Below are positions 1 through 44,200 of a stretch of DNA of 64,000 bases, one piece after another. Where the stretch lies: assembly GCA_030770535.1 (NCBI GenBank), contig JASVEC010000003.1, forward strand, positions 1,240,001 through 1,304,000. Direction: 5' to 3'. Origin of the DNA: Batkoa obscura. Taxonomy: Eukaryota. How positions within the stretch are numbered: position 1 is the first letter of the stretch; every line of letters starts with the position of its first letter. The notes beneath the pieces are model-generated. The model was not told the origin of the DNA and ran no database searches. It saw nothing but the letters and a program-made list of their open reading frames with translations. The position numbers and the translations under genes are program-made.

Positions 1-1254
1 ACATGACATTAATATTAATTAGTTTACAAAATTCTCCATATACTTCGGAGATTGGAATCATCATCTTTGAATTTGCTTGGTATTTCAAATTCAACCTAAA
101 TTTTTTATTAGTTATTAACTAAGTGACTATAAATTTGCTTACCAATTTTGAAACTGCTTTGATTCTTTAAGTTTAGCACTTTCTGAAGAAGCATCAAAAT
201 ATAAGGAATCTTCTCTTTTATCCGATAAATAAGTCCTTAACAAACTTAAAAAGGTACGATATAAATTGCCTGGAAAACTTAAAATAAAAGCTGAAAAGTC
301 TTCCAAAGCAAAATAAGCATACAATGAAAAAAATTCAGCTGTATGACAAACTAATTCCTCATCATAAGATAAAGTAATCAATTCAATAGCTCTTTGGACA
401 TAAACTTTAGATTGTAAAAAATCGGAAGCTTTTGAGCATTCTTTACCTAATAGTATCCTCGACATGCATCTCAGTGAAGAGATTATTTTAGATCGATCAT
501 AACTGTTTAAGAGCTGATATAGGCTTAAAAACATTTCCTTATCCATCCTTATAAAAGAACATGCATTTTCAAATAAATCAAGGCAATGACTTATAAGTTC
601 CGGATACCCTTTAGTGTCCATAAAAGAGGTTAAAGGAATCTCGCAACTCATCAACTGTTTAATAGTCTTCAAAATTATCTTTGAGTTACAAATCAACTTT
701 GCGTTGGCTGGTATTAAGCTGAAGTTCCTTAAAATTAGTATGGTTACCAGAAAATGTTCTGAGACTAAACTTCCATGCTTCTGATCAAGAGTGTTGTTAA
801 AATTCTGAAATTCTTCTTGTGTTATTTCTTCCAATTTTTCAAAAAGCAATATATTGTTATCTAATGTATAACTTGGTGGACAAAAATAAGACCATTCAAT
901 AAGCAGCTCAAAAGCCCACGAAATCTCATTAGGCAACCCACTTTCTAAAGCTAAATAAAGTCGATCCGTGTTTAGCATCCAATCAAAATCTAGATGGTAA
1001 TATAATTATGCTCTAATTAAAGTTTACTTTCTAAAATGATTTAGTCGCTTACCTAGTGGCCCATGATAAAACTCAGTTAACTCTCTTTTAAATAAATGTT
1101 CTGGTAAATTATTGCTAGTCTCCGGTCCAAGTGTTTGAATTGGAATTGGAGTGCTAGAATCAAAGGAGTCTGGTCTTGGTAAAATGCTGGCTCTTGTAAC
1201 TATCCTTGGTAATGTGTTTACAAATTGAAAGCTATTGGCACTTGATTGACTCAT
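1..1254 (-). CDS. RSC9: RSC/PBAF chromatin-remodelling subunit Rsc9-like; 3' end runs off the window
   Basis: Exons 1254-1053, 989-143 and 95-<1 splice in frame via GT-AG introns. Motif RLYLALESGLPNEISWAFELL is typical of Rsc9/ARID2. Exon 3 starts an RFX-like winged helix (WLNLKYQ...ISEVYGEFC). Confidence 0.7.
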
Positions 1255-1795
1255 AGTTTTTTTTGAATTTTAAAAGCAAAAAATCAATTCTTTTTATAAG
1301 TTAGTTTAATATTTAGCTTGATTTATTGCAACTTTTGCAATTAAGTGTGAATGCCATAAAAACCACTCCTTTAATTAACAAGTACTATTTGGCGCTTTTT
1401 GGCTAAGAGGGCCAATTTGTATGTGATTATTATGAGAAAATATATTACTCAGTCAGTTTCACTTTAACTGATACTTTGATTAATTGACATTGTTTCCTAT
1501 CAATTGTCATATTTTCTATCCCTTTTAGCTTAAAAATTGCTAAATTTAGAAATCTTCGAGTAAACGCAAAATGAATTATTATAAAAAATTTAAGCTTTCC
1601 TAAAAAACAGGTCCTTTTTTCAGAAATAAAGTGCTGGCCCAAAATATATAAATCTAATCAAAAAGTGAAAAATGGATTCAACCATGCTTTAATTCTAAAA
1701 TAATAAAAGATGTTTTTAACTATTTTTAACTTAACAACAAATATATTTACTATGGTAACTTAATATAAAGAATTCAAAAACAGCATAATATAAGG

Positions 1796-2357
1796 TGTGA
1801 AAGCTGGTACTCAGTGGTTGGAGTTAAAAGCAGTTCTTACTTGATTAACTAGCCTTGAGTCGAAAAGTCTTAGTTTATGTAACTAACATAGACTTAACTT
1901 AATAGGAATAATACGTAATAAACTACGAACTATGTAAAACAAATATAATAGGAGATACTACTGTATAATCTACGTAAGATATTGTCAGAAAGACTTAGTA
2001 GCTTTATTGATGGTACGATATCAGGGAGTAACTCAATTAAAAAGCCTCGAGTTATCATATTGAAGAATCTCTTTTATACTCTTTGCAATATGAAGTTGAA
2101 AATTCTCACAGCAAATCAAAACAAGGAACTCTAGATTGATTATACCACATGATTTACGGTTAAATTGGTTACAAGACTACCACTAGCTTTGTAAACAAAT
2201 TAAATAATTATTATCTTATAATTAATCCAAGAGCTGATAAAGCAGTATTTGGGGATGTATTTTTGTGTTTGAGAATTTTGCTAACAATATTTCCACTCAA
2301 ATAGCGCTTAAAAAATGGAAAAAATAATGAAGCCAAAAAAAACACCCCCATTTCACA
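1796..2357 (+). mobile_element. TGTGAAA...TTTCACA element (solo LTR or Ginger-like non-autonomous element), carrying a MITE
   Basis: Terminal 7-bp inverted repeat, AAGG 4-bp target duplication, homologous to six other copies. Confidence 0.8.
2251..2349 (+). mobile_element. ~100 bp GGGG...CCCC MITE
   Basis: Matches family consensus; ATTT TSD; nested in the element at 1796. Confidence 0.85.
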
Positions 2358-2901
2358 AAGGCATGATATTTTAAAAGTAAGTTTTTATTTATTATAAGTT
2401 TTTTAATAATAATAATTGACTAACTTAAATAAATAGTAATTTTTATCATGTTATAAACATAATTAATTCAATAAAAAAATCAATATTAATAATTAAATAT
2501 TTTAGTATAAATTATGAAATAAATCAATTTATATTTGTTTTTACTGTAGTATTTTTAATTACTATTATTAGTTTCATTTTATTTAATAATATATTTTTAA
2601 ATTTCTGTTTATTAATTAGTTTTTATTTATTAAAATGACTGTATTAGATATTTAAAATATTATTGTTGGTTATTAAAATGCTGGGTTTATATAGTTTTGT
2701 TTTATATTATTATTTAATATGGGGGTGTCCGAATTGGTTTCAGAATTTAACTAGAAATTAATCCAAATTTTAAGTTTTTAAATTTGTGAGTCTTTAATGT
2801 ATGATCAGCTAAATTTAAAAAGCTTAAGACTAAATATAAAAATTTAACTTAAAGACTTATTTTATTTATTTTATTTTATTTTATTTTTTTGATTATATGT
2901 T

Positions 2902-3261
2902 TGTGAAAGTTAGTACTCAGTAATTGGAGTTAGAGGCAGTTCTAGCTTAGTTAACTGGCCGTAAGTCAAAAGGCCTTAGTTTATGTAGCTAAGATAGACT
3001 TAAATCAATAGGAGTAATACGCAATAAGCCACGAGCTATGTAAAATAAATAGAATACAGGATATTACTATAAAATCTACATAAGATATTGTCAGAAAGAT
3101 TTAGTGGCTTTATTAAAAGTAAAATATTAGGGAACAATTTAATTAAAAAGCCTTGAGCTATTATGTTGAAGAATCTATTTTATACTCAACTAGTTTTGTA
3201 AACAAGTTAAGTGATTATTATGCGATAATCAATCACAGAGATGATGAAACGATATTTCACA
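2902..3261 (+). mobile_element. TGTGAAA...TTTCACA element, short subtype, inside Sola2 copy 1
   Basis: Termini and homology to the family; the same position is occupied in copy 2. Confidence 0.8.
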
Positions 3262-3352
3262 GTGTTTTGTATTTTTTATTAAATATTCAATAGCTATATA
3301 ATATATAATTATATAGTTATTTGACTTTGTTTTTTGTTAAAATAAAAACAAA

Positions 3353-5525
3353 ATGCAAGCTTTTATAACTAAACTTCGAAATGGAATTTCTAAAAACTTT
3401 AATACGGTAGGGAGAAGCACATTATATAAACATTGTAATTCATTTACATCAATTTTAGCAACTATTCACAATAGCCCAAAGTTTATGGAATTTTATAATA
3501 AAACAAAAAAAAGAAAAGAAATGTTATTAAATTTTACTATTAATAATAACAAACTTAATCAAGCAATGTATAAAATTAGTACTTTAAGGGAAACAGGAAA
3601 TAAAAACCAACAAGTAGCATTATTATCGACTATAGCTTCAGTATATTCTTTTGATGAATGTAAAAGTTTTGGATTTAATATAAGTAAAAATCAATATGAT
3701 TATTCAAAAATAATTAATAATAATAAAATACCAACGTTACGACCTACTATCAAAAATACAAAAAAAATTAAAGATGAGCAAATTGAGATTATTATACAAT
3801 ATTTACTTGATAATTCAACTATTTCATCAAGATTTAGTAAAAAAAATAATGATAAATATTCGTCAGAGAATATATATACATTAAATAAAAGTAGAAGAAT
3901 GATATACAGTAAGTATTTTAATGATTTAAAAGATAAAGCAGTAGTCAGGTCAACATTTTTCAAATATATACCAAATAATTTTAAAAATCCAGCAAGAAAA
4001 ACAGATTTATGTAATATATGTGCCCAGTATACAGTTAGAAAAAAGTTATTTGAAAATAAAATAAATACAGCAACAAAAAATAAAGCAGAGATAGAAGAAT
4101 CTTTTAATAAAGAAAAAAGGTTATATAAATTACATGAATTTTGTGTTGATACTCAAAAAAACATACTTAATGAAACTATTGAAAAATTAAATAATAGAAG
4201 TTGTATAATAATTTTAGACTTTAAACAAAATATGGAAATAGGAACAAGACCAGATCCAATAAATTTAGATCATTATAATAAACAAGCTATATCAGTATTA
4301 GGGTTTGGCGTTTTATATTTAAAAAATGATAAAACAATAGGCAAAGTTTATTTTGATTATTTATCTGAAATATTAAATCATGATTCAGCATATGCAGGAG
4401 ATTGTTTAATTGATTTAATATCTAAAGAGCCTTTATTTAAAAAGTTTACAAAAATTAATATATGGGCAGATACAGGATATCATTTTAAATCTCAAGAGTT
4501 TTTACATTATGTATTTGAAGAAATTTATAAAATAAATAGTAGTTTAAATATTGATTTTAATTTTTTTGCTGAGCATCATCGAGAAAGTATAGTTGACGGG
4601 CATTTTGGAAATCTTTCACAGTGGAAAAATAGTTTTGAAGCATTAGGTAAAATAGAAGATATTGATCAATTAATTTCAAAATTTGAGATTTTTGTTTGTG
4701 TGTGAAAGTTGATACTTATTGGTCGAAGTTAAAAGCTACTCTTGCTTAATTAACTTGCCTTGAGTCGAAGGGTCTTAGTTTATGTAACTAAGGTAGACTT
4801 AACTTAATAGAAATAGTATGTAGTAAGCTACGAATTATGTAAAACAAATACAATGGAAGATACTACTATAAAATCTATATCAGATGTTGTCAGAAAGACT
4901 TAGTGACTTTATTAATGATACGTTATCAGGGAGTAATCCAATTAAAAAAGCCTCGAGTTATCATATTGAAGAATCTCTTTTATACTCCAATAAGTATGGA
5001 TATCAAAACGAGAAGATAATATTCTTTGCAATATGAAGTTAGAAATTCTCGCAGCAAATCAAAATAAGGGACTCGGACTTGGTTGTGTTTGAACTTGAGA
5101 ACACAACAACTTAAATCATTGTTGTGTTATAATCAATCCGAGAGCTAGATAAAGCAATATTTCACAGTGAAAATAATAGATTTAATAACTCAACTGTCAA
5201 TAATGGGCAAATAAATATAATTTTTAAAAAGTATGAAAGAAACAAAGATACAAAAAAAATAATAAAAATAAAAGGTATTAAAAAGTATTTACATTTTATT
5301 AAACGTGGTAAAAAACTACACTGTTATCCAGTATCTGATAGATCAAAAAAAAGCGATATAATTTCAATTAAAGTTATAGAGTCTATAGAGGATAGAAAAA
5401 TTAAAAGGTCAACCCCAGCTTATCTTACAAAAATAACTGAGAATTTAAAAGTTTCAATATTTAGTAAGCAAGTAAGTAGTTTATTAGATGATAGAAATCA
5501 ATTATTAAATGTTGATATTACTTAA
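3353..5525 (+). pseudogene. Sola2-like transposase interrupted by an insertion at 4701-5166
   Basis: Motifs TDLCNIC, ILDFKQN, WADTGYHFKS, SIVDGHFG and IKGIKKYLHF. Removing the insert and its GTG duplication restores an open frame of about 567 aa ending at TAA 5523-5525. Confidence 0.8.
4701..5166 (+). mobile_element. TGTGAAA...TTTCACA element, long subtype, in transposase copy 1
   Basis: Empty site visible in copy 2 (TTTGTTTGTGAAAATAAT); GTG duplicated. Confidence 0.85.
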
Positions 5526-6639
5526 ATTATTAATAGCTAAGTTAATAAATAGTCAAAGAGCAAGTAGTTGTAATAATAAGTAAAAACTATTATTATACTG
5601 CTTGTGTTACATAGGGATGGTTAATTGTAGTTTTAAGGCTAACCACTCCCTCCCATGCAGCTATTTATTAACTTAGCGATATATTAATAATGTAATTATA
5701 ACATTAAAATAATTTATTTATTTGATAGCAAATCTGCAATGTTGAATATAAAACAGTCAATAATAAATATTTCTTAATAAAGTTATATAAAAGTATATAC
5801 TTATTTACATATTACAACTTTGACTAATATCACTATACAGGCTATATTAGTAAAATCTTTACTAATCCAGGAATTTATATTAAATTTAATAAAAATTCCG
5901 CTAATTGACAATATAAATTATAACAAAATAATTTAAAACTGTGTCGGGTACTTTTGGCTTTTAATAAAGAATTTATTTTTATAGAATTTTAAGCAAAGTT
6001 TTTAAAATATAAATATTTAAAAATTGGATAAAAAAATGAAACCAATTCGGACACCCCCATATAAAGCTTAAACTTTTTATAAATCTTATTTTAGACTATT
6101 TAACATACTATTTATTAATTTAAAAATTTATGAAAATAAGTATAATACCTACAGCTAAATTAGTAATTGCATTTGAGAGAAAAAGAGATATTAGTGCATA
6201 TAAACTCCAACTTGAAGCTGTAGTTAATATAATGTCACCAAAAGTACTAATTGCGCTACACAATCTAGCTTCAATAATAGCGAAACCTATAAAACAACCA
6301 AATATAATATATAGAGTAGTAAGAGATTCATTTAATAATATACTTATAACAATAGAATTACTAAGAAAATATATTAAGTAAAGGAGGAAGTTAAATGCAG
6401 AAATTCTATGTATAGACTTGATGTATTTTAATTGTTTATATAAAATTACACCACAAAAAAAATAAAGAATTTTGTAACGCCAAGTTACCAATTGATCACG
6501 ATATCATGTAGCTACATGTATCAATAGGGATATCGACTCTCATTGTATTCAGGAAATATAATTCTGTAAAGTTACATTTTGTTTTAATAATCCAGACTGA
6601 TTTAAATGCCCAACTAATTTGATCTGTTATTTCAAAAGA

Positions 6640-7480
6640 TGGTGATTATTTTTCTTCTACTGTAGCGGAAAAAGGTCATAAAAAAGGATTTGAATTTGAT
6701 CTTCAATCCTAAAGATATAATGCTATTATAAATACCGGAAGTTCAGATTTATTTGCTAGATGTGGAGAAAAGCATCTAGAAACAAAATTTTTGATTATAA
6801 ACTCTAATGGTATTTATATATTAAGTATTAATAGTTATCAATTCGAAAATACTTTTAATGCTAATACTAACTTCATCAATACATTTAGATTTAACATTTA
6901 CAAGCCACTGTAGTTTATTGATGCTTTAAATCTAAAAGTTCAAGGTTTTTTGATTACTCACAAATTTGATATTAAAAAAAAGTATATAGCAACGCTTGAA
7001 GTCATTACCGCTATGGAAGCATTCTCTTCAATCTCTGGCAGTACTATATTATTGTTGATTGACTCATCAATCATTTCAGCAAAATGTAAGAAAAGGTAAG
7101 TAATATTAAATTAAAATATTAAAAAGATAGTCAATGAAGACAACAATTGAATACCAATCTATTTATTGAAACTTTAGGGAATAACCTGACCTTTAAGAAA
7201 GTCGTTACTAATCGAAAGCCCAACTCTTAAACTATTTCCAGTATGAGCCTCTTCACGTTCTGCCTTCTAAAAAATTACGATTGAAATTAGCCAATTTCCA
7301 GATTTCGAATTCACTAAATCTGTTAGGATCAAATTCAAAATCATAAAACATTCCAAAAGGTTCTAAGTTGGAAAATCCCAACTTTAATACCTTGAACCTT
7401 GTAAATACCATATTGAATATAATAGTATGACTTACCTCTCGGTACTACACCTTGTCATGTTTGGCCGCTTCGGAAAGTCC
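6640..7480 (+). pseudogene. Degenerate pepsin-like aspartic protease
   Basis: AIINTGSSDLF at ~6722-6754 resembles DTGSSDLW. A frameshifted ILFN-SGSTI at ~7021-7048 resembles the second DSG(T/S)T lobe. Many stops; boundaries approximate. Confidence 0.45.
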
Positions 7481-8073
7481 TGAACTTTTACTTTAAATGA
7501 TATAAATACTCATATTAACTTTTAATAAACATTATTTTAAAATTAGAATATTAATTCAACTCATTTTCAATTTTATTTCCTTACCTTACTTGTAAAGTTA
7601 CTAATAAAATGACTTTCCTGATTAACCTGTAAAATTTCACAACAAAGAGTGACGATTTTGTCACATTTTTAGCTTTGGCTGTCATAGATATTACAAATGA
7701 TCATGGCTTTACTATTTGAACTTTATACTTTAACAGTGATGTTATTTAAATTAATAGTATGAGGCTTAAGATAAGATGAATGATTGATTTTAATTTAAAA
7801 GCTACCTCAACAAATACTGGTTCAGCGGGTACAGAATTAGCAAATCGAAAAATATGTCAGTGATTAAAAGTATCAGTCCTTCATTATTTATCATATAAAT
7901 ATATTTATTAATATATCAATAGCATCCCCTATCGATTCCAGAAGCCTTCAGGAAGGTATTGTCAAATATTGCTTCATTCTACTAGGATAAATTCACTTCA
8001 GTCATCAATTGATCACATAATTAATAAAATAATGATTGGTTTAATTGGTTTTCAATCTAATGATTATGTATAT

Positions 8074-8171
8074 GGAGCTGTTTTTTTGATTTCATTATTT
8101 TTTGCATTTTTTAAGCGCTATTTCAGCGGAAAGATTGTTGGTAAAATTCTTAAACAAAAAAATATAGATTC
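8074..8171 (-). mobile_element. MITE
   Basis: Family consensus in reverse, ATAT flanks. Confidence 0.8.
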
Positions 8172-8262
8172 ATATATTACCAACTTTAAAACTAAATGAA
8201 ACATTTCAATTAACGTCACCTGATTTAAATCAATGAATATCATACCAGGATTTTGCTCATAT

Positions 8263-8361
8263 GGGGATGTATTTTTTGTTCAAGAATTTCACCAACAATC
8301 TTTCTGCTCCAAATAGTGCTTAAAAAAGGGAAAAAATAATAAAGCTAAAAAAAACACCCCC
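8263..8361 (+). mobile_element. MITE
   Basis: Family consensus, ATAT TSD. Confidence 0.85.
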
Positions 8362-8647
8362 ATATATGTATTTCACCCCTAAATTCGAATATACATGGAC
8401 ACAGTGTTAAATTAAATCACGATTACTATAAAACTTACTAAATTACGATAGATTATAATTAACAAACTTTGGGTGTATTTATGAATTATAAATGAAGTAC
8501 CATAGATTGCTCATTTAATTTAATGAGGGATTCAAGTTTAATCTAGAAGCTATCAATAGCGACACACACTAAGTGATATAAATAGCATGATTGCTATCGT
8601 TTTTCATAAATTTATTTTTATCAAGGAATATTTTAAAATATTTGTTT

Positions 8648-9925
8648 ATGACCATGTATTCTAATTCAAATCAACAAAACACAACTAAAAAATTCAGAAG
8701 TCAAGCTGAATTGAATCAATCCAATATTAAACCTAATCGTGTACCTACATTAACCAAAGAAAAACCAACAGAAAATTCAGCTATTGTACCTAACTTAATG
8801 AAACAAGAAATTACGACAAAAGTTGACAGATATTTTAAGGCTAGAACACCCGAAGGTAATGGTGTAATAAGAGATATTATATTGAGACCAGCATTCAACA
8901 CAGATAGTATTAATGTTGGTGATAATGACTACTTATGTATTGCAAAAGTTATTGGTGTAAGTAACTATGACTCGGAAGTAATTATGTCAAATGTTTTTAT
9001 ATCTGATGAGGGACCACAAGGCAAACTTGAAAAGGATATGGCGGAATATATAGGCAAAGAATCATCCATTATAACTCAGTCCGGTTATGCAGCTAATTCT
9101 GGTCTCCTTCAGTGTTTATGTACCAATGAAACAAATGTTTATATAGATAGCTTTTTACATGCATCTTTTAGAGATGGAATCGGTTTTAGAAAACCAAAAA
9201 TGCATATCTTTAAACATAATAATGCCAATGACTTAGAAAGATTAGTAGAAAATAATGGTTATGGTATCATTGTAGTTGAAAGTATCTATAGTGTAACTGG
9301 GGACTCTACGCCTCTTGAAAAGGTAATAGATATCAAAAAAAAGTACGGGTGCTTATTAGTACTTGATGAATCGCATTCATTAGGGTTGTATGGGGAGAAA
9401 GGTAGAGGGTATACTAGTTTATTTGATCACCAGCATGTTGATATTATTACTGCTAGTTTAGCAAAAGCATTTTGTGCAAGAGCAGGGATCATAGCAGGTG
9501 ATAAAAGACTTGTTGAGTATGTAAAAGAAAATTCTATGCCTCATACATTTAGTTCATGTATCATGAACTATGACTTAGTCCGGATGCATAAGATATTAGA
9601 TAAAGTAAAAAGTATGGATAAAGAGCGAGAGCATCTTATGGACATATCAAAAGAGTTTCGAAGGGTTTTAGGGCATATTGGTGCACCATATACTAAATCT
9701 GAATTTACTTCACCAATCATTAGTTTAGTATTTCCATCCGAAAGGGAATTAGTGAAAATGAACCAATATTTATTAAAAAAAAACATATTTGCTTCATGTT
9801 TTGTTCATCCAACTACAGCTAGAGATGCTCCTTGTTTAAGGTTCACATTGAACTCAAACATTACTATGAAAGATGTCAGTTACATTATATCCCAAATATC
9901 TTCCTATAATGGTTCAAAGTTATAA
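8648..9925 (+). CDS. cqsA: CqsA/LqsA-like PLP-dependent alpha-hydroxyketone autoinducer synthase (alpha-oxoamine synthase family), intronless
   Basis: Collinear with recalled V. cholerae CqsA motifs: NDYL, MSxxF, QSGxxANxGLLQxxC, TNVYIDxFxHxS, FxHNN, GIIVVxSIYS, DESHSLG, TASLAKxFxxRAG (PLP lysine), FxSxFxxPxT and RxxLNS. First ATG at 8648; TATA-like TATATAAAT at ~8576. Confidence 0.88.
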   Translation: MTMYSNSNQQNTTKKFRSQAELNQSNIKPNRVPTLTKEKPTENSAIVPNLMKQEITTKVDRYFKARTPEGNGVIRDIILRPAFNTDSINVGDNDYLCIAKVIGVSNYDSEVIMSNVFISDEGPQGKLEKDMAEYIGKESSIITQSGYAANSGLLQCLCTNETNVYIDSFLHASFRDGIGFRKPKMHIFKHNNANDLERLVENNGYGIIVVESIYSVTGDSTPLEKVIDIKKKYGCLLVLDESHSLGLYGEKGRGYTSLFDHQHVDIITASLAKAFCARAGIIAGDKRLVEYVKENSMPHTFSSCIMNYDLVRMHKILDKVKSMDKEREHLMDISKEFRRVLGHIGAPYTKSEFTSPIISLVFPSERELVKMNQYLLKKNIFASCFVHPTTARDAPCLRFTLNSNITMKDVSYIISQISSYNGSKL

Positions 9926-10261
9926 TTTGATTAGCTAGTTTTCATAACTAAGTATGATAAACCATATTACTTTATTACTTTATTATAAAATTAAACTAAA
10001 AATAAACATTATTCAAAAACAGATTACCATTTGATTTAGTACTTCATTAGATTAGTTTGTGAGATAACAATTAAGTATTTAAACCACTAGTTTTTTGAAT
10101 CACTTTGATTTTTAAAAGTAGAGCAATAAAATAAATATTTTTGATAATATAAAAAAATGTGAAAATCTTAGAAATTTTATAACTTAAAGAATCGATCTTT
10201 TCAAAAAAACAAAACATTCAAACAAAAGATGTAGCCATTTAAAGTTTACTATAATTTTAAC

Positions 10262-11476
10262 TTACATTGATTTATAAAATAAAACATCTCCTTCATCTTC
10301 TACAAACAAACAATTTCTTGCAGATCTATACAAAGATAAATGAAGTGGTGTCTTATCATAAAGATAATATTGATCCAATTTAACTTTAAGATATTTTGTA
10401 GCTTCAATTGCATTATAGAAGGGCATCCGGGGGAACAAATGATGAGCAACATGTGAATCATTAATATGATGGAGAGCAACATTAAGAAACCAACCATAAT
10501 CACGATCAACAGTAGTTAAGCAACCTCTAACATAGTTCCATTCCTTTGGATTATAGTGGGGTAAATAAACATCCGTATGTTGTAAAAGGGTGATGATTAC
10601 TACCCAAGCGTTACAAACAAGATAGGGTATTGAATAATATCTAGTAACTGCCCAGAAGGAAGTTATTTTAATAAAATAAGCAATTACAAATAATGCTACC
10701 ATTAAACCAGCGTCTGAAAGTAAAACATCAAATGCTTGGTGTGGACGAAAAAGTGGAGATTTTGGATCGAAATGAGAAACATTCTGGTTATAACGTTTAC
10801 CAGAAGCATTGCATATAAGATAAGCGGGCAATCCAATTAGCAAAATTTTGATTAAGTATAAAACTGTATAGATTGGAGCTGATTTAACGGACCCATTTAT
10901 TGTATCATACAGCTTATTGTACTCACTCCTCGTAATTGGTACGTATCCTTGATCCTCATATAAATGAGCAGTATGAGCATGATGACGAGCATGAGAAATA
11001 GCCCAAGAGAAATATGGGATCAACAATGCACTGTGTAATACAAATCCAGTAAAATCATTAATAATTCTATAATCTGAGAATGCTTGATGACCACATTCAT
11101 GAGCAACAACCCATAGTGCAGTCAAGAATACACCTTGGAAAAACCAATACAATGGCCATAAAATCAATTGAATAATAAACGAAAAAGTATTAAAGTAAGT
11201 TGCAATATAAAATAAACCGGAGCATATTAATAAATCAGTCAATAGGTAAAGAGAATATTTAACTGTAGAGCGCTTGAACAAATGAGATGGTATACTATCA
11301 CGCAATTCCTTCATTGTGAAATTTGGCGGTGTATAGTTTTTATGATAGAACTCAATGCCTTCATTACTAGCTATATAGCTTAAATCATTTGCTTTGAATA
11401 CATTGTCTTTCAAATTGTTATAGTGTATTGAATCAATTTTTTTATTGCTATAATTAATTATTTCTGGTGGAGACAT
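10262..11476 (-). CDS. FAD2: Delta-12/omega-6 (FAD2-like) fatty acid desaturase, intronless
   Basis: Three His boxes (HECGH, HARHH, HVAHH); N-terminal PPNFTMKELRDSIPSHLF; LQHTD and TVDRDYG motifs. Confidence 0.9.
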   Translation of the reverse strand: MSPPEIINYSNKKIDSIHYNNLKDNVFKANDLSYIASNEGIEFYHKNYTPPNFTMKELRDSIPSHLFKRSTVKYSLYLLTDLLICSGLFYIATYFNTFSFIIQLILWPLYWFFQGVFLTALWVVAHECGHQAFSDYRIINDFTGFVLHSALLIPYFSWAISHARHHAHTAHLYEDQGYVPITRSEYNKLYDTINGSVKSAPIYTVLYLIKILLIGLPAYLICNASGKRYNQNVSHFDPKSPLFRPHQAFDVLLSDAGLMVALFVIAYFIKITSFWAVTRYYSIPYLVCNAWVVIITLLQHTDVYLPHYNPKEWNYVRGCLTTVDRDYGWFLNVALHHINDSHVAHHLFPRMPFYNAIEATKYLKVKLDQYYLYDKTPLHLSLYRSARNCLFVEDEGDVLFYKSM

Positions 11477-12242
11477 TATTCTATTAAAAACTTTTTATAG
11501 ATTTTGTTTTTAATTTATACCTTCTCATATTCTAATTTTCCTTTTTTAGTGTGTATTCAGGAATATATAAGCAATGATATTATTACGAAATCATTTACAT
11601 CAACGATGATCTGAAACATGAACTACTTTTTCCTCCCCTTTTTCTGAAATCAAGTTTAATTGAGGGTGTTTTTTTAATTTAATTACTTTTTCTACTCTTC
11701 ACCTTATTAAGGGAGGTCTCGGGTAACTACTCCAAAAATTAGTTTAACCTTGAATAAAATTCGTCTATGATTCTACAGGAACTTTAACTAAACAAAGTAG
11801 TTTTGAATAAAATTTCAAGAATACTCTACATTCAATTTATTATAAAGCTTAATTTATCCTAAAACAAAACAGCTTTTATTGGCTATTTGATAATATTGGA
11901 CCTAGAATATTAAAATACAAAATACAAAAAATAATAAAATGATGAAAAATCAATTAAACTTTAGTTTTTATAAATTTTGCAATAAAAAAGTGAAATAGTA
12001 AATTTTAAAATTTATTTATTTATTTATTTAAAATTTTACTTAGTAATTAAACAAAAAGTAATTAAAACATTTATTTCTAAATGAAATTTCAATTTCAATT
12101 TTAATTATAATATTTAAAAATTAGTTTAAAAATTAGTTTGAATTTTATTTAGTTTAATTTTCAATAACGATTGTAAATCAAGCACCAAGTGGGGGTGTCC
12201 GAATTGGTTTGATTTTTTATCCAATTTTTAAATATTTTATAT

Positions 12243-12436
12243 GGGGAAGTATTTTTTTAAGAATTTTACTAACAATCTTTCCACTCAAATGGGGATGTTT
12301 TTTGGTTTCATCACTTTTTCCATTTTTAAGCGCTATTCGAATGGAAAGGTTGTTAGTAAAATTCTTAAACAAAAAAATACTTCCCCAAATAGCGCTTAAA
12401 AAATGGAAAAAATAATGAAGCCAAAAGAAACACCCC
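12243..12436 (+). mobile_element. MITE with a second, inverted MITE nested inside (12291-12386)
   Basis: Outer TSD ATAT; inner TSD AAAT splitting CCACTCAAAT/AGCGC; absent from Sola2 copy 1. Confidence 0.85.
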
Positions 12437-13104
12437 ATATTTTAAAAACTTTGCTTAAAATTCTATGAAAATAAATTATTAAAAACCAAAAGTACCCAAC
12501 GCAGTTTTAAATTATTTTATTATAATTTATATTGTAAGTTAGCAGAATTTCTATTAAATTTAATACAAATTCCCAAATTAGCAAGGCTTTTACTAACATA
12601 GCCTATATATTAATATTAATCAAAGTTATAATATATAAATAAATGAATATTTCTATAGAACCTCATTAAGCAATATTTATTATTGACTGTTTTATATTCA
12701 ACATTGCAGATCTGCTATCAAATGAATAAATTATTTTAATGTTATAATTACATTATTAATATATCGCTAAGTTAATAAATAGCTGCATGGGAGGGAGTGG
12801 TTAGCCTTAAAACTACAATTAACCATCCCTATGTAACACAAGCAGTATAATAATAGTTTTTACTTATTATTACAACTACTTGCTCTTTGACTATTTATTA
12901 ACTTAGCTATTAATAATTTAAGTAATATCAACATTTAATAATTGATTTCTATCATCTAACAAGCTACTTACTTGCTTACTAAATATTGAAACTTTTAAAT
13001 TCTCAGTTATTTTTGTAAGATAAGCTGGGGTTGATCTTTTAATTTTTCTATTCTCTATAGACTCTATAACTTTAATTGTAATTATATTGCTTTTTTTTTA
13101 TCTA

Positions 13105-13563
13105 TGTGAAAATTAATACTCAGTGGTCGGAGTTAAAAGCTACTCTTGCTTAATTAACTTGCCTTGAGTCGAACGATCTTAGTTTATGTAACTAACATAG
13201 ACTTGAATTAATAGGGATAATACGTAATAAACTACGAACTATGTAAAACAAATATAATAGGAGATACTACTGTATAATCTATGTAACATATTGTCAGAAA
13301 GACTTAGTGACTCTATTAATGGTACGGTATCAGGGAGTAATTCAGTTAAAAAGCCTCGAGTTGTCATATTGAAGAATCTCTTTTATACTCTTTGCAATAT
13401 GAAGTTAGAAATTCTCACAGCAAATCAAAACAAGGAACTCTGGATTGGTTATACCACATGATTTATGGTCAAATTGATTACAAGACTACAACTAGTTTTG
13501 TAAACAAGTTCAATGATTATTATGTTATAATTAATCCGAGAGCTGATAAACCAATATTTCACA
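13105..13563 (+). mobile_element. TGTGAAA...TTTCACA element
   Basis: TCTA TSD; empty site in copy 1. Confidence 0.85.
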
Positions 13564-14472
13564 TCTATCAGATACTGGATAACAGTATAGTTTATTATCA
13601 TGTTTAATAAAATGTAAATACTTTTTAATACCTTGTATTTCTATTATTATTTTTACATCTTTGTTTCTTTCATACTTTTTAAAATTGTATTTGTTTTCCC
13701 ATTATTGACAGTTGAGTTATTAAATCTATTATTTTCACAAACAAAAATCTCAAATTTTGAAATTAATTGATCAATATCTTCTATTTTACCTAATGCTTCA
13801 AAACTATTTTTCCACTGTGAAAGATTTCCAAAATGCCCGTCAACTATACTTTCTCGATGATGCTCAGCAAAAAAATTAAAATCAATATTTAAACTACTAT
13901 TTATTTTATAAATTTCTTCAAATACATAATGTAAAAACTCTTGAGATTTAAAATGATATCCTGTATCTGCCCATATATTAATTTTTGTAAACTTTTTAAA
14001 TAAAGGCTCTTTAGATATTAAATCAATCAAACAATCTCCTGCATATGCTGAATCATGATTTAATATTTCAGATAAATAATCAAAATAAACTTTGCCTATT
14101 GTTTTATCATTTTTTAAATATAAAACGCCAAACCCTAATACTGATATAGCTTGTTTATTATAATGATCTAAATTTATTGGATCTGGTCTTGTTCCTATTT
14201 CCATATTTTGTTTAAAGTCTAAAATTATTATACAACTTCTATTATTTAATTTTTCAATAGTTTCATTAAGTATGTTTTTTTGAGTATCAACACAAAATTC
14301 ATGTAATTTATATAACCTTTTTTCTTTATTAAAAGATTCTTCTATCTCTGCTTTATTTTTTGTTGCTGTATTTATTTTATTTTCAAATAACTTTTTTCTA
14401 ACTGTATACTGGGCACATATATTACATAAATCTGTTTTTCTTGCTGGATTTTTAAAATTATTTGGTATATAT

Positions 14473-14935
14473 TGTGAAAGTTGATACTTAGTGGTCGAAG
14501 TTAAAAGCTACTCTTGCTTAATTAACTTGCCTTGAGTCGAAGGGTCTTAGTTTATGTAACTAACATAGACTTGAATTAATAGAAATAGTACGTAATAAGC
14601 TACGAATTATGTAAACAAATACAACGGAAGATACTACCGTAAAATCTATATCAGATGTTGTCAGAAAGACTTAGTGACTTTATTAATGATACGTTATCAG
14701 GGAGTAATCCAATTAAAAAGCCTCGAGTTATCATATTGAAGAATCTCTTTTATACTCCAATAAGTATGGATATTAAAACGAGAGGATGTTATTCCTTGCA
14801 ATATGAAGTTATAAATTCTCGCAGCAAATCAAAATAAGGGACTCTGACTTGATTGTGTTTGAACTTGAGAACACAGCAACTTAAGTGATTGTTGTGTTAT
14901 AATCAATTCGAGAGCTAATAAAGCAATATTTCACA
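14473..14935 (+). mobile_element. TGTGAAA...TTTCACA element, long subtype
   Basis: ATAT TSD; empty site in copy 1; close to the 4701 copy in sequence. Confidence 0.85.
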
Positions 14936-15642
14936 ATATTTGAAAAATGTTGACCTAGCTACTGCTTTATCTTTTAAATCATTAAAATATTTACTGTATA
15001 TCATTCTTCTACTTTTATTTAATATATATATATACTATCTGACGAATATTTATCATCATTATTTTTTTATTGAATCTTGATGAAGTAGTTGAATTATCAA
15101 GTAAATATTGTATAATAATCTCAATTTGCTCATCTTTAATTTTTTTTGTATTTTTAATAATAGGTTGTAATGTTGGTGTTTTATTATTACTAATTATTTT
15201 TGAACAATCATATTGATTTCTACTTATGTTAAATCCAAAACTTTTACATTCATCAAAAGAATATACTGAGGCTATAGTTGATAATGCTACTTGTGGTTTT
15301 TATTTCCTGTTTCCTTTAAAGCACCAATTTTATACATTGCTTGGTTAAGTTTGTTGTTATTAATAGTAAAATTTAATAACATTTCTTTTCTTTTTTTTGT
15401 TTTATTGTAAAATTCCATAAACTCTGGGTTATTGTGAATAGTTGCTAAAATTGATGTAAATGAATTACAATGTTTATATAATATGCTTCTCCCTATCGTG
15501 TTGAAATTTTTAGAAATTCCATTTCGAAGTTTAGTCATAAAAGCTTGCATTTTGTTTTTATTTTAGCAAAAAATAAAGCCAAATAATTATATATTTATAT
15601 TTTATATATCTATTAGACATTTAATAAAAAAATACAAAACAC

Positions 15643-15998
15643 CGTGAAATATCGCTTCATCAGCTCTATGATTGATTATCATACAATAATCATTTGACTT
15701 ATTTACAAAACTAGTTGGAGTATAAAAGAGATTCTTCAATATAATAGCTCGAGGCTTTTTAATTGAGTTATTCCCTGATATCGTACCTTTAATAAAGCCA
15801 CTAAGTCTTATAGTATTTTAGGTAGATTTTACAGTAGTATCTTGTGTTGTATTTGTTTTACATAGTTCGTAGCTTATTACGTATTATCCCTATTAATTCA
15901 AGTCTATGTTAGTTACATAAACTAAGACCGTTCGACTCAAGGCAAGTTAATCAACCAAAAACTGCTTTTGACTGCAATCACTGAGTACCAACTTTCAC
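15643..15998 (-). mobile_element. TGTGAAA...TTTCACA element, short subtype, inside Sola2 copy 2
   Basis: Same position as 2902-3261; nearly identical to 16470-16826. Confidence 0.85.
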
Positions 15999-17096: not shown

Positions 17097-18994
17097 ATGA
17101 ATATATCACCAAAGAGTAAGTTATCCATATTTCTAATCAATAGTTAGTTGATTTTTTAAATAGAAGGAGTACGTAGTGAAATGGATAAAAAGCGCCGCCG
17201 CGTGGATAGTTTAGAACACGATATAAAATCTAAAATTGCCCACTTACAGTACATAAAAATAATCAATCCATCTCATTTCCCAGTATATCACAGTAAATAG
17301 CTATCCTAACAAAAGTATCTAGAAAATGTACTAACTATTAATCAGAATACTTAGCTTGGTGCGTGGAAATATTGGACCAAATAAAACATGACACTCTATC
17401 TGTATATAAAGACTACGATTACATTGAGCTATTAATAGATGCTTATAAACTTGAGCTGCTGACAATCGATAAAAACAGCAACGAAAATGTCCTCCACGCA
17501 ATCAAACCAGTTACTTTGTTAAAGCGACCAACTACAGGATATGGCATTTTTTTACAGACTGGTACAACTATCTACTTAAAATACATTAACTTGTACCAGA
17601 TGTGGTACACTTTCGAAGAAGTCAATGCTTTACTAACCAGCCCTAACCCTGATATGTCTTCCCATGCTTTTCTAGCTTTTTTAGCTTATTTCACTGGTTC
17701 GAATAGCAGTATGTTAACACATCAGGTATATAAAATTAGCTTAAAAAAAGCAAGGCAAGGGTTGATAAAAGCGTATGCTAGCCCTTCATTTAACAGTGTA
17801 ATCGGTTTATTATTTTTGAGCTTTATTTCAGCGTACAAATCTGATTCAGTTACAACTATACTTTATTTTAGTTCGGCTATAAGGATGGCGCAGGTGTTGG
17901 GGTATGATAAAATTGTAGAAGAGGATAAAGAAAAAGTAGAGTACGATAAAGAAATGAATGTGGAGAAAAAGGAAAGAATCGTAAAGTTATGGGACTCGTT
18001 ATCCTTGGTTTATTACATCTTTTCTACTATTCTTCCAGATATGCAAAGTCTTAATGTAAATTTTCGGCCAGTGAAAATCAATGTGCCAAAAAGCATTGGA
18101 GGTCGTCTAGATTTGGACAAAACTCATATGGTGAATGGAATAGAGATGAAAACAATTTTTTTAAATAAGAACTTCGAAAAGATATATAGTGAAAAAAAAG
18201 TAATTGAATCGTTTACAGAGATTGTATCACACATTCAAAAGGTTGAGCTAAATTATTCAAGATTAGATAGAATACATGAAATACCACATCATGAATTACA
18301 ATTACCAGAAGAAAAGTTCAATATTATATTAGCTAATATAGTGGGCCAGTTGATGCACAACCCATCGTTATATGATACAATGAAAAAAATAGAGTTAAAA
18401 GAACAAATACAAAATATGAAAACAATCCGGCAATTTTATGAATCCAATGTATTTAATTATCACTTAAATGCTTTTGCTAGCTTAGTATTAATATATTTGT
18501 ATTACCCTTCCGTCTTAGTTATTCCAAAACCTAAAAGGTTTTCAATCAATGAAACTATGGTTTTATACAAGTCTGCTCAATCGGTAGCAGAATTTTTCTT
18601 AATAATGAAGCGTAGTAATATCTTACAAACAAATGGTTTGAACCGTGGTACTTTTGCATGCGTTAGTTGTGACTTAGCTATTAACGATGGGTTTCATCTT
18701 AATTATGAATCCCCATATTATACCTCCATCATGTATGTAGTGTATGTCTATTTGTCATTTATCAGTGAAGAAGAATGGTTGTTAAACCAAGGATTTGGTA
18801 AAAGGTTGATGATTGAAGCAAAGGCTTATGTATTGAAACTGCTGAAATTATTGATGGCTACTTGTGACTCAAAATTGAAAAGCGAAAGGTTGGATTCAGT
18901 CAATACTATCAAGTTGATTAAAAAGAATTTGAACAATTATGTGGTAAACGAGGCGTTTTTATTGTCTATTAATAGATTATTGTGTAGAAAGTAG
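17097..18994 (+). CDS. Fungal TF MHR-domain protein lacking Zn2Cys6, paralog 1
   Basis: Exons 17097-17115, 17164-17292 and 17346-18994 give MNISPKKGVRSEMDKKRRRVDSLEHDIK... MHR-like motif YFSSAIRMAQVLGYD...ERIVKLWDSL. Confidence 0.75.
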
Positions 18995-19597
18995 ATGAGA
19001 GTTATGTTTTGGGTAAATTGGGTAAATTGTTTATTTATTATAATAAAAATATTATAGGTACATACTAAGTATCCTTTGATGAGGGAATAGATGTAAAACA
19101 GTCAATTATTTATTAAAAAATAAAATGAATTCGAGTATTAAATTGTTTCAATGTAAATATATTTATTTTGGTCATTGATGATACACTCCTTGAAAGCATT
19201 AACTCACATTGATTAGCCGTCTTTTCGCAATAGAAATAACGTTATTGTTTTTGCCATTCCTTTAAGTATTTATCATGGCTACTGGTTTAAAAACTAATGC
19301 AGCTTACGTCAATCTTTATCTTAAGAAAGGTGCTAACTTAATTCAAAAATTGTGTTAATCGTTAATAAAAAGATTAAAACTTTTTAAAAGATAGACAAAT
19401 GCTATTAAAAATGTGCTAATTAATTTTGAAGTTAATAAATTTTATTAAAAATGATTCTAATACTAAAAAGTGATTTTTTCAAATAAGTAGTTATCATTTC
19501 CTTTACATCTGCCTTCAAAAGCACATTAAACAAAAAAGTTTCATATCAATAAATAAACAAATAAACATTTCACTAAGCGCATAGCCACTTTTATCTC

Positions 19598-21516
19598 TTA
19601 CCCAATAATATCCTTAATGGTCATCAACAACGTATCCTCAATTTCGTAATTTCCTAGATTCTCTTTAATAGATTTAACAGTATCCATTGAATCAAACCTC
19701 TCGTTTTTCAATCCAGAGTTACAGACACCCTTCAACAATTTCAATAATTTAAGCATATACGCTTTAGCTTCAATGACAAATTTTTGTCCAAACCCCTGAC
19801 TCAACAGCCATTCTTCTTCGCTAATAAATGATAAATAAACATATATTACATACATAATAGAGGTATAATATGGCGCTTCATAGTTGAACTGAAACCCATC
19901 GCTAGTAGCTAAAGCACATCTAGCGCATGCAAAAGCCCCACGGTTCAAACCATAAGTTTGTTGGATATTATTTTGGTTTACTATTAGATAGAATTCCGTT
20001 ACTGATTGAGCAGATTTGAATAAGAGCCTAGCTTCATTGATCGAAAACTGTTTAGGTTTTGGGACGACTAAAACAGAGGGATAGTATAGATAGATTAATA
20101 TTATATTAGTAAAGGCATTTAAATGATAGTTGAATACATTAGACTCATAAAATTTCTGGATTGTTTTTATGTTTTGCATTTGTTCCTTTAATTGTATTTT
20201 TTTCACTGCATCGGATAAAGACGGATTATATATTAATTGACTGGCTAAATTAGTCAACACAGTATTAAATTTCTCTTTTGGAAGCTGCAGTTCCTGGTGA
20301 GGTACTTCATTTAATTTATTCAATCTTAAATATTTTGATTTAACATTTTGAATATGTGCTACAATTTCAATGAATGACTCTGTCACTACCTTTTCAGCAT
20401 ATATCTTTTCAAGCCTACTATTTGAAAAAGTCGTCTTCATTTCCAAGCCATTTATCGCACTAGTTCTGCCTAGTTGCAAACCATCTATATCAGCTTTCGG
20501 TAACTTTATTTCTACTGGTTTAAAGTTAAAACTGAGACTTGGTATATTTGGAAACAAAGTTAAAAAATGGTAGTAAACCATTGATAGCGAGTTCCACAGC
20601 TTTATTTTCCTTTCTTCTTTTTCCATACCCTCGATAAAACTCCTATCTATACTCTTGTTGTAACCTAACATCCTCTTATCTTCTTCAACCCCCTCTTCTG
20701 CAATCTTATCATATCCCAGCAACTGCGCCATTCTTACAGCTGAGCTGAAATAACGTAATCCCATTGCAGAATCTGATTTATATCCTGAAATAAAGCTCAT
20801 AAACAGTAACCCAATCACATTATTAAAGGAGGGGTTTGCATATGCTTCTGTCAGTCCCTTCTTTGCTTTCTTTATATTTATTCTATAAATTTGCTGTGCT
20901 AGAATCCTATTGTTTGAAGCTGTAAAATAAGCCAATAAAGCTAAAAAGACATAGGAGGACATTTCAGAAGTATTTTTGGTTAATAAAGCATTAACTTCCT
21001 CAGGGGTGAACCACATTTGATATAAATCAATATATTTTAAATAAATAGTTGTACTAGTTTGTAGGAAAGTACCATAGCCAGTGGTTGGTTGTTTCAATAG
21101 ATTAATTGGCTCAACAATGTAGCTGAAGTTGGGGTTTTTGCTGATGTGCATTAGTTCATGTTTATAAGTATCTATTAATAATTCAATGTGATCGTAGTCT
21201 TCGAATACAGATATTGTGCCCTGCTTTAGTTGACTTAATACCTTGACACACCAAACCAAGTATCCTTAATTTTATATTTTAGTATTTTATTTTAAATGCT
21301 TTATCGAATTGGTTATTTACTGTGATATATTGATAGCTGTGATGGACTCACTTTTTGTAGATGTTGCAATTGGGTTATTATAGAGCTTACATTGTGCTCT
21401 AAATTGTTCATTCGATGCCGCTTTAAATCTATTCCACTGCGTAGTTTAGCTATGGGTCAGGGTTAATATGCATTGGTCGTAAAAATGGATGACTTACTTT
21501 TTGGTGGGGTGTTCAT
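19598..21516 (-). CDS. MHR-domain protein lacking Zn2Cys6, paralog 2
   Basis: Same three-exon structure (21516-21498, 21449-21321, 21264-19598). Confidence 0.75.
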
Positions 21517-21905
21517 GATGCTGGGTTTTAAGATAAATTGAACTAAAAAAAGCTAAATTGTTAGCATTATTTTTAACCTCAATTGATTGATTTTATACAA
21601 CTTGATTGCAATAATTACTGTTTTTACAGCTAATTTAAGTAAAATGCGACCAGTTTAGCGATGGTTTTTATAATTAAAGAGTTTGTTTGAATTTTTTAAG
21701 GCCTGATCCTCAGATTTTAGCTTAATTATAGCTAAATATTTAAGAATAAATAAACAGTTTATTAGTTTATAGAAGAAATGAAATAACAGTAAACTCTATC
21801 TTTTTTCTCTAAAGTTTATCCAATAAAATGACATAATTATTACGTCTCATAAAAACGAGAAAATAAACTTAACCCATTTTAATTTATTTAAAATCCAATT
21901 TCAAC

Positions 21906-23818
21906 ATGGATACAGTGCCAAAAAGTAAATAATTCTATTATTCTAACTGACATATAATAACCCTCGATTCATAGTAAAATTACGTAGTAAAATGAATAAA
22001 AGGCATCACCGTGTAGATGCTTTGGAGTGTGATATAATGAAAATAATAGCCTACTTACAGCAACTTAAAACTGTTAGCCCATCTCACTTATCAGTATATC
22101 ATAGTAAATAAGCATATTAGAAAAAATACTTAAAGAACTAACACCATGTCAAAGAATATTTATCCTGGTGCGTCGAGATATTAATCCAATTACAACAAGA
22201 AACCTTATCGGTGTTCGAAGACTACGATTACATTGAGTTATTAATAGCCACTTATAAACAAGAACTGAGATTTTTCAATAATAATAACAACTTTTCATAT
22301 GTTATCGAACCAACTACTTTATTGAAGCAACCAACCACCGGATACGGTGCTTTTTTACAAAACGGTACCTCTGTTTATTTAAAGTATATTGATTTATATA
22401 ACATGTGGTATACTTGCGAAGAAGTCAACGCTTTATTAATCAACTCTAAGCCTGATATGCCCTCTTATGCCTTTTTAGCTTTATTGGCTTACTTCACAGG
22501 TTCGAACAATGGTACATTGGCACAACGGATTTATAAAAATAGTTTAAGAAAAGCTAAAGAAGGTTTGGTGGAAGTTTATACTAATCCATCCTTTAATGGT
22601 GTAATTGGTTTACTGTTTTTGTGCTTTATTTCGGCTTATAGATCAGATCCAGTAGGAAGTGTACGCTACTTTAGCTCAGCTGTAAGGATGGCACAAGCAT
22701 TAGGGTACGATAGAATAGTAGAAGAGATGGAGGGGAGTGATAAACAGAGATTAAGACATGATAAAGAAAAGGAGGAGGCAGATGAGATAAAGCTAGAGAA
22801 AAGAGGAAGGGTCGTGAAATTATGGAACTCATTATCATTGATTTATTATCATTTTTTGATAATGTTTCCAAATATGCCAAGTCTTGATGTCAACTTTAAA
22901 CCAGTGAAAATTGAGTTGCCTAATGTCAATAATAATTTGCAAACGCACAAAACTTGTGAGGTGAATGGCTTGGAGATGAACACTATTTTTTTAGATAAAA
23001 AGAGTAAAAAGATATATAGTGAAAAGATAGTGACAGAGTCATTCATTGAGGTTGTAGAACACATTCAAAAGGTTAGATTAAGCTACTCAAGGTTAAATAA
23101 AATACATGAAATACCCGATCACGAATTACAATTACCAAAAGAAAAGTTTAATACAGTGTTAACTAGTTTAACCAGCCAATTAATGTATAATACATCCTTG
23201 TTTGAAACAGTAAAAAAAATGGAGTTAAAAAAACAGATAGAAAATATGAAAACGATACAACATTATTATGAATCAAACGTCTTCAACTATCATTTAAATG
23301 CTTATACTCATTTAGTGTTAATCTACCTATACTACCCTTCGGTACTAGTGTTTCCAAAACCAAAAAGATTTTCCATCAGTGAAACTCTAATCTTATATAA
23401 ATCAGCTCAATTCGTGGCAGAATTTTTTTTAATAATGAAACAAAATAATATTCAGCAAAAAAATAAAAAAAACCAAACTACTAGTGAAAGTAATTATAAT
23501 GAATTAGCTATCAATGGTGGATTTCACCTTAATTATGAAGCCCCATATTATACTTCAGCTATGTATGTAGTGTACGTTTATTTATCTTTTATTAGCGAAG
23601 AAGAATGGCTGTTGAGTCAGGGGTTTGGTAAAAAGTTGATAATTAAAGCAAAGGCTTATGTATTAAAATTATTGAAAATGTTGAAGACTACCTGTGATTC
23701 TAACTTGAAAAGCGAAAGGTTGGATTCAAAAAGTACAATCCAATTTGTTAAAGGAAATTTGAGGAATTTTAAAATTGAGGATATGTTATTATTATCTATT
23801 AATGAGATTATTAAGTAG
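21906..23818 (+). CDS. MHR-domain protein lacking Zn2Cys6, paralog 3
   Basis: MDTVPK exon 1, KLRSKMNKRHHRVDALE exon 2, long exon 3. Confidence 0.75.
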
Positions 23819-40226: not shown

Positions 40227-40354
40227 GATGAAGTTGGATTTTAAATAAATTAAAATGAGATGTTAAAATTTTTTAGGTTTATTTTTTAAGATGCATTATC
40301 AATTCATGCAATTTAAAAAGACGCCTATTAAACCTGATAAAAATCTGAGAATAT

Positions 40355-40448
40355 GGGAATATATTTTTGTTAAAGAACTTAACTAACAATCTTTCCACTC
40401 AAATAGCGCTTAAAAATGAAAAAAGTGATGAAGCCAAAAAACACCCCC
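40355..40448 (+). mobile_element. MITE in the paralog 4 promoter
   Basis: ATAT TSD. Confidence 0.85.
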
Positions 40449-42939: not shown

Positions 42940-43067
42940 GATGAAGTTGGATTTTAAATAAATTAAAATGAGATGTTAAAATTTTTTAGGTTTATTTTTT
43001 AAGATGCATTATCAATTCATGCAATTTAAAAAGACGCCTATTAAACCTGATAAAAATCTGAGAATAT

Positions 43068-43160
43068 GGGAATATATTTTTGTTAAAGAACTTAACTAAC
43101 AATCTTTCCACTCAAATAGCGCTTAAAAATGAAAAAAGTGATGAAACCAAAAACACCCCC
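43068..43160 (+). mobile_element. MITE in the paralog 5 promoter
   Basis: Same left junction as the 40355 copy. Confidence 0.85.
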
Positions 43161-44102: not shown

Positions 44103-44200
44103 AGGGATGTATTTTTTGTTTAAGAATTTTACTAATAATTTTTCTGCTCAAATAGTGCTTAAAAACTGGAAAAAGTAATGAAACCAAAAAGAACATCCTC
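44103..44200 (+). mobile_element. MITE
   Basis: Family consensus, ATAT flanks. Confidence 0.8.

Follow-up and report, generated by a model that had tools for sequence, protein, structure and literature searches.

A CqsA-family alpha-oxoamine synthase with a predicted peroxisomal targeting signal in the fungus Batkoa obscura

The Batkoa obscura synthase described here falls inside the CqsA family, ends in a peroxisomal targeting signal (PTS1), carries two acidic residues in its acyl pocket, and belongs to a patchy eukaryotic branch of that family. In the literature examined, CqsA-type synthases are described from bacteria only.

The gene and its fungal locus

The window is the whole stretch of DNA that was analysed, 64,000 nucleotides long. 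Its features relevant to the synthase are the following.

8040..8360, no strand assigned: high-copy short repeat element(s) lying upstream of the synthase gene, MITE-like (the label being our interpretation), seen as a depth peak (D7, D10, D11, I18, I20)
8577..8583, plus strand: TATA-like box at chance level, 71 nt before the first ATG
8648..9925, plus strand: CqsA-family PLP-dependent alpha-oxoamine synthase gene (ORF, HMM, PDB, Foldseek, trees)
8648..8797, plus strand: N-terminal extension of 50 aa, predicted disordered; relatives begin at the level of M51 (8798)
8873..8875, plus strand: D76, aligned to the pocket-lining H30 of CqsA, in a region aligned with less certainty than the core
9464..9466, plus strand: K273, the PLP Schiff-base lysine by alignment, equivalent to K236 of CqsA
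9527..9529, plus strand: E294, aligned to the pocket-lining F257 of CqsA
9914..9922, plus strand: C-terminal Ser-Lys-Leu, a PTS1 (ORF translation, consensus)
10262..11476, minus strand: convergent delta-12 fatty acid desaturase gene, ordinary and vertically inherited, with fungal best matches

The first-pass annotation had described an intact, intronless ORF with CqsA-type motifs, and both points were borne out: the frame encodes 425 aa with no internal stop and no intron, and all four quoted motifs are present (MSNVF, QSGYAANSGLLQ, TNVYIDSF and TASLAKAFCARAG). Its AT-rich, host-like composition was likewise confirmed, with a GC of 0.32 and a GC3 of 0.23 (0.32 and 0.235 in the adjoining desaturase gene) and a codon-usage distance from host genes of 0.22, within the host range of 0.14–0.28. 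The N-terminal extension exists, although it is 50 aa long and not about 45; in the AlphaFold2 model (mean pLDDT 82.7), residues 1–38 have a pLDDT below 50. The TATA-like box is also present but at chance level, TATAWAW occurring 345 times on both strands of the 64-kb window, or with about 24% chance per 100 nt. Neither the SKL terminus nor the pocket change was part of that earlier description.

Four of the 11 listed runs (X1, X2, X5 and X6) were compared with positions 1–11900 of the window. In X1 (DNA-type), the contig over 8342–9985 had a depth of 21.4, against 23.5–25 for flanking unique contigs, and differed from the window at 34 letters; in X5 (DNA), 8433–9985 had a depth of 9.3, against 9.7 for the desaturase and 10.7 for 1205–1793, with 89 other letters. 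Two diverged samples hold the synthase at single-copy fungal depth. Misassembly of DNA from a bacterial contaminant or endosymbiont into a fungal contig would suit an intronless gene in transposon-rich surroundings, and no single record in the four runs joins the synthase to the desaturase or the RSC9-like gene by at least 31 letters. However, the flank-level depth, the divergence of X1 and X5 from the window, the orthologues annotated in two other entomophthoralean genomes together with two paralogues in Conidiobolus coronatus, the host codon usage and the PTS1 all speak against contamination, which is already largely refuted and to which we give next to no probability. That the synthase is a real fungal gene, as the first reading of this locus had it, we regard as practically certain.

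X6, an RNA library on record, gave one gap-free contig over 8655–9816 with 55 other letters, spanning the N-terminal extension from 8655 without gaps, along with pieces of the desaturase; it gave no cover of the unique intergenic stretch 6353–7940. X2, an RNA run by guess, gave two identical pieces, one of which (8641–8871) spans the extension. These contigs, which carry no strand or level, suggest that the synthase is transcribed with its N-terminal extension included.

The surroundings are fungal. The desaturase has its best matches in Neoconidiobolus thromboides (76%), Massospora (57%) and Entomophthora (51%), which makes an entomophthoralean host close to Neoconidiobolus likely. In addition, a Med13_C match lies at 62.9 kb of the window, and Fungal_trans-like paralogues lie at 17–50 kb. 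The RSC9-like ORF at 139–1005, which owes its RSC9 label (139–978) to the first-pass annotation, had no Pfam match, and a candidate GTAAGC splice donor lies upstream of it at ~1052 on the minus strand. No evidence at the locus supports the desaturase as a partner of the synthase; in N. thromboides the two genes are on separate short contigs, the desaturase orthologue on one of 26,555 bases and the synthase on one of 38,853. Two inverted copies of a high-copy transposon-like element, at ~2720–6060 (plus) and ~12190–15720 (minus), flank the synthase-plus-desaturase block, and one 738-nt arm is 100% identical between them; the copies could make inversion or movement of the block possible, or else reflect assembly collapse. 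Further along, a ~555-aa ORF without a Pfam match recurs as at least seven paralogues in 17342–23818 and 38871–49779. This is a tandem expansion in which the copy at 38871–39971 is truncated; the ESM Atlas grouped one paralogue with Fungal_trans / Zn2Cys6 transcription factors (0.97).

Family assignment and relatives

Among NCBIfam models, the CqsA-type model NF005526 scored best for the synthase at 339 bits, below its equivalog cut-off of 428. The BioF model TIGR00858 gave 204 bits against a cut-off of 426, and the KBL (175), SPT/LCB2 (128–173) and ALAS (152) models all stayed under cut-offs of 339–670. None of the seven eukaryote-side relatives scanned passed NF005526 (291–356 bits); among sister-group proteins, L087 (432) and P0130 (446) pass and L084 (355) fails. 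In the PDB, V. cholerae CqsA matched at 1.5e-60 and the next family at 1.4e-33, with ALAS, KBL and SPT/LCB2 at least 27 orders weaker than CqsA. A Foldseek search with the AlphaFold2 model placed CqsA at ranks 1–6 (E 4.7e-38), and the fold is shared with V. cholerae CqsA (PDB 3hqt, 2wk7-9) and LqsA/JqsA at a TM of 0.79–0.81 of the query. The PLP/carboxylate residues H171-A-S173, D240, S242, H243, K273 and R398 are kept, which gives the synthase the full superfamily set of Schiff-base Lys, His-Ala-Ser, Asp-x-x-His and C-terminal Arg (PMC6148460). The synthase also resembles CqsA, LqsA and JqsA in its DESH and QSG motifs; identity is 33–37%, and entomophthoralean members have a deletion of about 10 residues after NDYL.

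Among the matches listed, the closest were N. thromboides KAI9292565 (68%) and the C. coronatus KXN65100 and KXN67691 clusters (49–51%), followed by Gongronella butleri, Mortierella sp. GBA30, M. alpina, Drechslerella, Dactylellina and Emericellopsis. Orbiliales are among the fungal carriers, and at least 13 Aspergillus species have homologues, including A. versicolor and A. sydowii. Several unnamed proteins also fall on the eukaryote side, as does one from a bdelloid rotifer, Adineta steineri. Identity between fungal phyla is 34–48%, and bacterial matches reach 32–41%. Massospora and Entomophthora, both among the desaturase matches, are absent from the 120 synthase matches listed in either search, which hints at gene loss, the searches being word-limited. 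A metagenome scan with the fungal alignment yielded no fungal neighbourhood among the 80 loci kept of 226 relatives, all at 42% identity or less.

Four trees of 114, 69, 42 and 28 rows were built under LG+G4 or LG+CAT, with bacterial rows hand-thinned from a dereplicated set; eukaryotic BioF, ALAS, KBL and LCB2 were outside the trees, and for the last three the comparison was by HMM, PDB and fold scores. The synthase lies inside the CqsA family, apart from BioF and SPT, with support of 100 (100/100 in the 42- and 28-row trees). Grouping ten eukaryote-side rows with three cut-off-passing BioF proteins was rejected in the 28-row tree (p-AU 7e-35). Descent from the CqsA family rather than BioF, as first claimed, is upheld by this tree and by the HMM, PDB and fold comparisons. 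Entomophthoralean rows form one clade (support 99–100). The fungal clade has support of 95 (114-row), 92/85 (42-row) and 98/94 (28-row) and is not resolved in the 69-row tree, and the wider eukaryote-side group has 90 (114-row), 98 (69-row) and 94/94 (42-row) and is not resolved in the 28-row tree. A side clade joining the eukaryote-side rows to their bacterial sisters was recovered in all four trees (SH 99, 98, 100/100 and 88/98).

The bacteria in this side clade are Legionella orphan genes, one alphaproteobacterial MAG and one gammaproteobacterial MAG. The orphan genes of Legionella jamestowniensis, L. gresilensis, the Legionella sp. D16C41 plasmid and the alphaproteobacterial MAG (L089, L082, L084 and L087) share with the synthase an N-terminal Y/F-x-x-R-T motif, the absence of an adjoining histidine kinase and, in the three intact genes, Glu at position 257; unlike the synthase, they are uncharacterised, lack a PTS1 and have Tyr at position 30. 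They are distinct from canonical lqsA, which branches apart and in L139 adjoins a response regulator and a kinase. A flanking kinase was found at 0 of 4 sister loci, three of which are Legionella and so not independent, versus 37 of 52 other loci with full flanks (24 shorter loci being excluded from the count). In contrast to CqsA, LqsA and JqsA, the synthase has no sensor kinase in the 64-kb window, there being no tblastn match of two CqsS/LqsS-type kinases within it. The CqsA/LqsA/JqsA type assigned at first therefore holds as far as the family is concerned but not for the strict synthase-plus-receptor type, because the synthase sits in a side clade in which the bacterial genes have no adjoining sensor kinase, scores below the NF005526 cut-off and has two acidic pocket residues.

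No adjoining kinase was seen in actinobacterial CqsA homologues either (L095, L104, L111, L113, L115, L119, L131, L137, L138, L152, L153, L158, L159), and receptor-less use of a CqsA-type enzyme may be widespread. The L. gresilensis homologue (L082:3974-5185) is split into two ORFs, and it and the L108 homologue, from an unrelated clade, lie on opposite sides of the same neighbourhood, presumably dsbB/tgt/cyclophilin.

A CqsA-clade bacterial origin of the fungal gene is, in our judgement, highly probable, and nesting in the tree would set the direction of transfer from bacteria to eukaryotes. From the sequences, an old acquisition by a fungal ancestor from a proteobacterial donor is likely. 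The identities of 68% to Neoconidiobolus (76% for the desaturase) and about 50% to Conidiobolus fit inheritance from a common ancestor or earlier. The branching order among fungi (Zoopagomycota, then Mucoromycota and Ascomycota) and the identity between phyla would allow one ancient gain with heavy loss, and the patchy distribution would allow serial transfer. In place of the single-genome transfer event pictured at first, we found a patchy eukaryotic subfamily in fungi and a rotifer, some members of which look decayed: in the Drechslerella copy the PLP lysine is replaced by Gly, and in that of A. karnatakaensis the HAS histidine is replaced by Pro.

A giant-virus vector was rejected for now, since two viral-contig scans gave one phage-like contig, outside the clade. 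The CqsA-family gene on that contig (L035:7791-8924, also L161; related L032:4530-5591) belongs to a cluster of seven members and has a probable DNA polymerase gene on one side and a thymidylate synthase gene (Pfam) on the other; it might encode an autoinducer synthase carried by a phage, or else an enzyme of DNA modification. Two unnamed proteins are of composite structure, P0188 (802 aa) naturally joining two alpha-oxoamine synthase domains, of which the second is CqsA-like, and P0228 (1195 aa) having a membrane-protein-like N-terminus and a C-terminal CqsA-like domain at 815–1154.

The eukaryotic homologues are public under generic names, some auto-labelled CAI-1 synthase by JGI. A full-text literature search over accessible text, with subscription journals, bioRxiv supplements and the rotifer and Aspergillus HGT tables outside its scope, turned up no paper describing a CqsA homologue in a eukaryote. 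The available text of an HGT survey of 44 early-diverging fungi (PMC11291939) gives 18 KXN accessions, neither C. coronatus homologue among them, and that of the C. coronatus genome paper (PMC12387763) does not mention the synthase homologue. The tree of the JqsA paper, as far as its text was available, covers bacteria (PMC3566124). A cqsA match in the accessible part of PMC8105982 proved to be a qPCR formula and not a gene.

The targeting signal and the acyl pocket

The synthase ends in SKL, within the PTS1 consensus of C-terminal [SAC][KRH][LM]. This strict signal is present in 25 of 38 eukaryote-side members (17/27 fungal-clade rows and 8/11 other eukaryote-side rows), and a looser pattern in 22/27 fungal-clade rows, the misses including fragments. 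On the bacterial side it was found in 0/80 genome loci (the 80 kept of 226), 0/152 bacterial-type matches and 0/61 other CqsA rows, and in the sister group in one of eight rows, a bacterial MAG protein ending SRL. The Fisher p of 2e-16 is overstated, since the rows are related to one another and the groups were set after the tag had been noticed. Across phyla the tripeptide varies within the consensus (SKL, AKL, ARL, CKL, SRL-type), suggesting selection on the signal. With a C-terminal consensus conserved in orthologues, we predict with good confidence that the synthase is peroxisomal. Two side-clade proteins without PTS1, P0243 (Adineta steineri) and P0232 (unnamed), have N-terminal extensions that by eye resemble mitochondrial presequences, suggesting a possible second retargeting.

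Fungal and plant peroxisomal BioF (KAPA synthase) offers a parallel: it too is an alpha-oxoamine synthase, carries a PTS1 and draws on acyl-CoA in the peroxisome; fungal BioF requires both its own PTS1 and that acyl-CoA (PMC3713238). A synthase converged on the BioF role would make KAPA in peroxisomes from pimeloyl-CoA and alanine for biotin. This we consider very unlikely, since the BioF grouping is rejected in the tree, the BioF HMM score is far below the CqsA-type score, additional acidic residues would be unfavourable to a dicarboxylic tail, and Aspergilli generally possess their own BioF (PMC3713238, which lists other species in the available text). BioF moreover belongs to a core vitamin pathway, whereas the synthase is patchy.

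The acyl pocket of V. cholerae CqsA is formed by H30, V32, F79, F257, I263, F264, C346, P348 and A349 (PMC3285556), and its numbering was transferred via V. parahaemolyticus CqsA P0050. The synthase has D, I, F, E, T, F, V, P and T at these positions, so that three of nine are identical (F79, F264 and P348), two are acidic, and the pocket is not the hydrophobic one of CqsA. Glu at position 257 occurs in all 27 fungal-clade rows, 9/11 other eukaryote-side rows and 7/8 sister rows, and in 3/80 bacterial genome loci (80 kept of 226 relatives), all three of the sister clade. At position 30 the fungal clade has Asp in 23/27, a gap in 3/27 and Asn in 1/27. E294 and D76 could close off the pocket, form pairs with the conserved R66 or K293, or hold a cationic group.

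Candidate reaction, product and role

Judging from sequence, we favour slightly over an even chance a peroxisomal CqsA-family enzyme that condenses acyl-CoA with a SAM-derived or 2-aminobutyrate donor into an amino- or enamino-ketone; CqsA-type chemistry as such is somewhat probable. We know of no established SAM supply inside fungal peroxisomes. The folded dimer would enter the peroxisome through PTS1 and Pex5 import, use acyl-CoA from beta-oxidation intermediates, and form a PLP aldimine with SAM or 2-aminobutyrate as the four-carbon amino donor. Claisen-type C–C bond formation, CoA release and decarboxylation would follow as in CqsA (PMC3376566), leaving an amino- or enamino-ketone that might be reduced or modified later. 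The product is probably not CAI-1 itself, and its tail or head would differ, since Glu and Asp take the place of the Phe and His found in the CqsA pocket.

True CAI-1/LAI-1-type molecules (C8–C12 tail, from SAM), mimicking bacterial signals or acting on animal hosts, are an unlikely product. Peroxisomal beta-oxidation would supply C8–C12 acyl-CoA, F79, F264, P348 and all catalytic residues are retained, and insect- and nematode-associated fungi are among the carriers. CAI-1 and LAI-1 inhibit amoeba migration (PMC4669118) and C. elegans is reportedly attracted by CAI-1 (as cited in PMC7679379), but cqsA mutants attract worms as well as the wild type (PMC7679379). Further, Glu 257 and Asp 30 bring charge into a hydrophobic pocket, the synthase is under the NF005526 cut-off, its nearest bacterial relatives (mostly Legionella) have no adjoining sensor kinase, and the Drechslerella copy has lost the PLP lysine.

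The remodelled pocket, conserved throughout the side clade, together with the peroxisomal tag and the readiness with which this superfamily switches substrates (PMC6148460), would also suit use of Ala, Ser or Gly as the amino acid, or of a polar acyl-CoA, giving a short sphingoid-like or other aminoketone, or peroxisomal clearance of toxic medium-chain acyl-CoA that frees CoA. However, the synthase is nested in CqsA, no partner genes were found nearby, and patchiness and decayed copies suit an accessory more than a housekeeping role, so that we hold this to be distinctly improbable. For the CqsA-like condensation, the product would be secreted as a secondary metabolite against bacteria or small animals and would not be a self quorum signal; given the lack of a linked receptor, the patchy spread and the decayed copies, the enzyme more likely serves an accessory ecological purpose than signalling to its own kind.

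More speculatively, and in our view rather doubtful, eukaryotes may have quorum-signal-type synthases of their own, the synthase among them. This CqsA branch, lacking a receptor, would have passed from amoeba-associated proteobacteria into three fungal phyla and other eukaryotes and become peroxisomal so as to draw on chain-shortened acyl-CoA, and its alpha-amino/hydroxyketone products would jam or mimic CAI-1/LAI-1/JAI-1 signalling or steer animal cells or nematodes. A JAI-1 synthase mutant changes a bacterium–Fusarium interaction (PMC5080296); this effect and those on amoebae and C. elegans indicate possible targets and are not evidence.

The basis of CqsA substrate preference is described as not understood in the available text of PMC3285556, and the pocket change is a natural probe of what sets it. 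A eukaryotic, PTS1-tagged branch with an altered pocket predicts a new class of fungal aminoketone metabolites. Zygomycete fungi are thought to be poor in secondary metabolism, and such aminoketones are predicted in them as well as in the directly testable Aspergillus versicolor, A. sydowii and Mortierella alpina. Should bacterial receptors respond to the product, this would be a case of a eukaryote using the bacteria's own enzyme for the signal.
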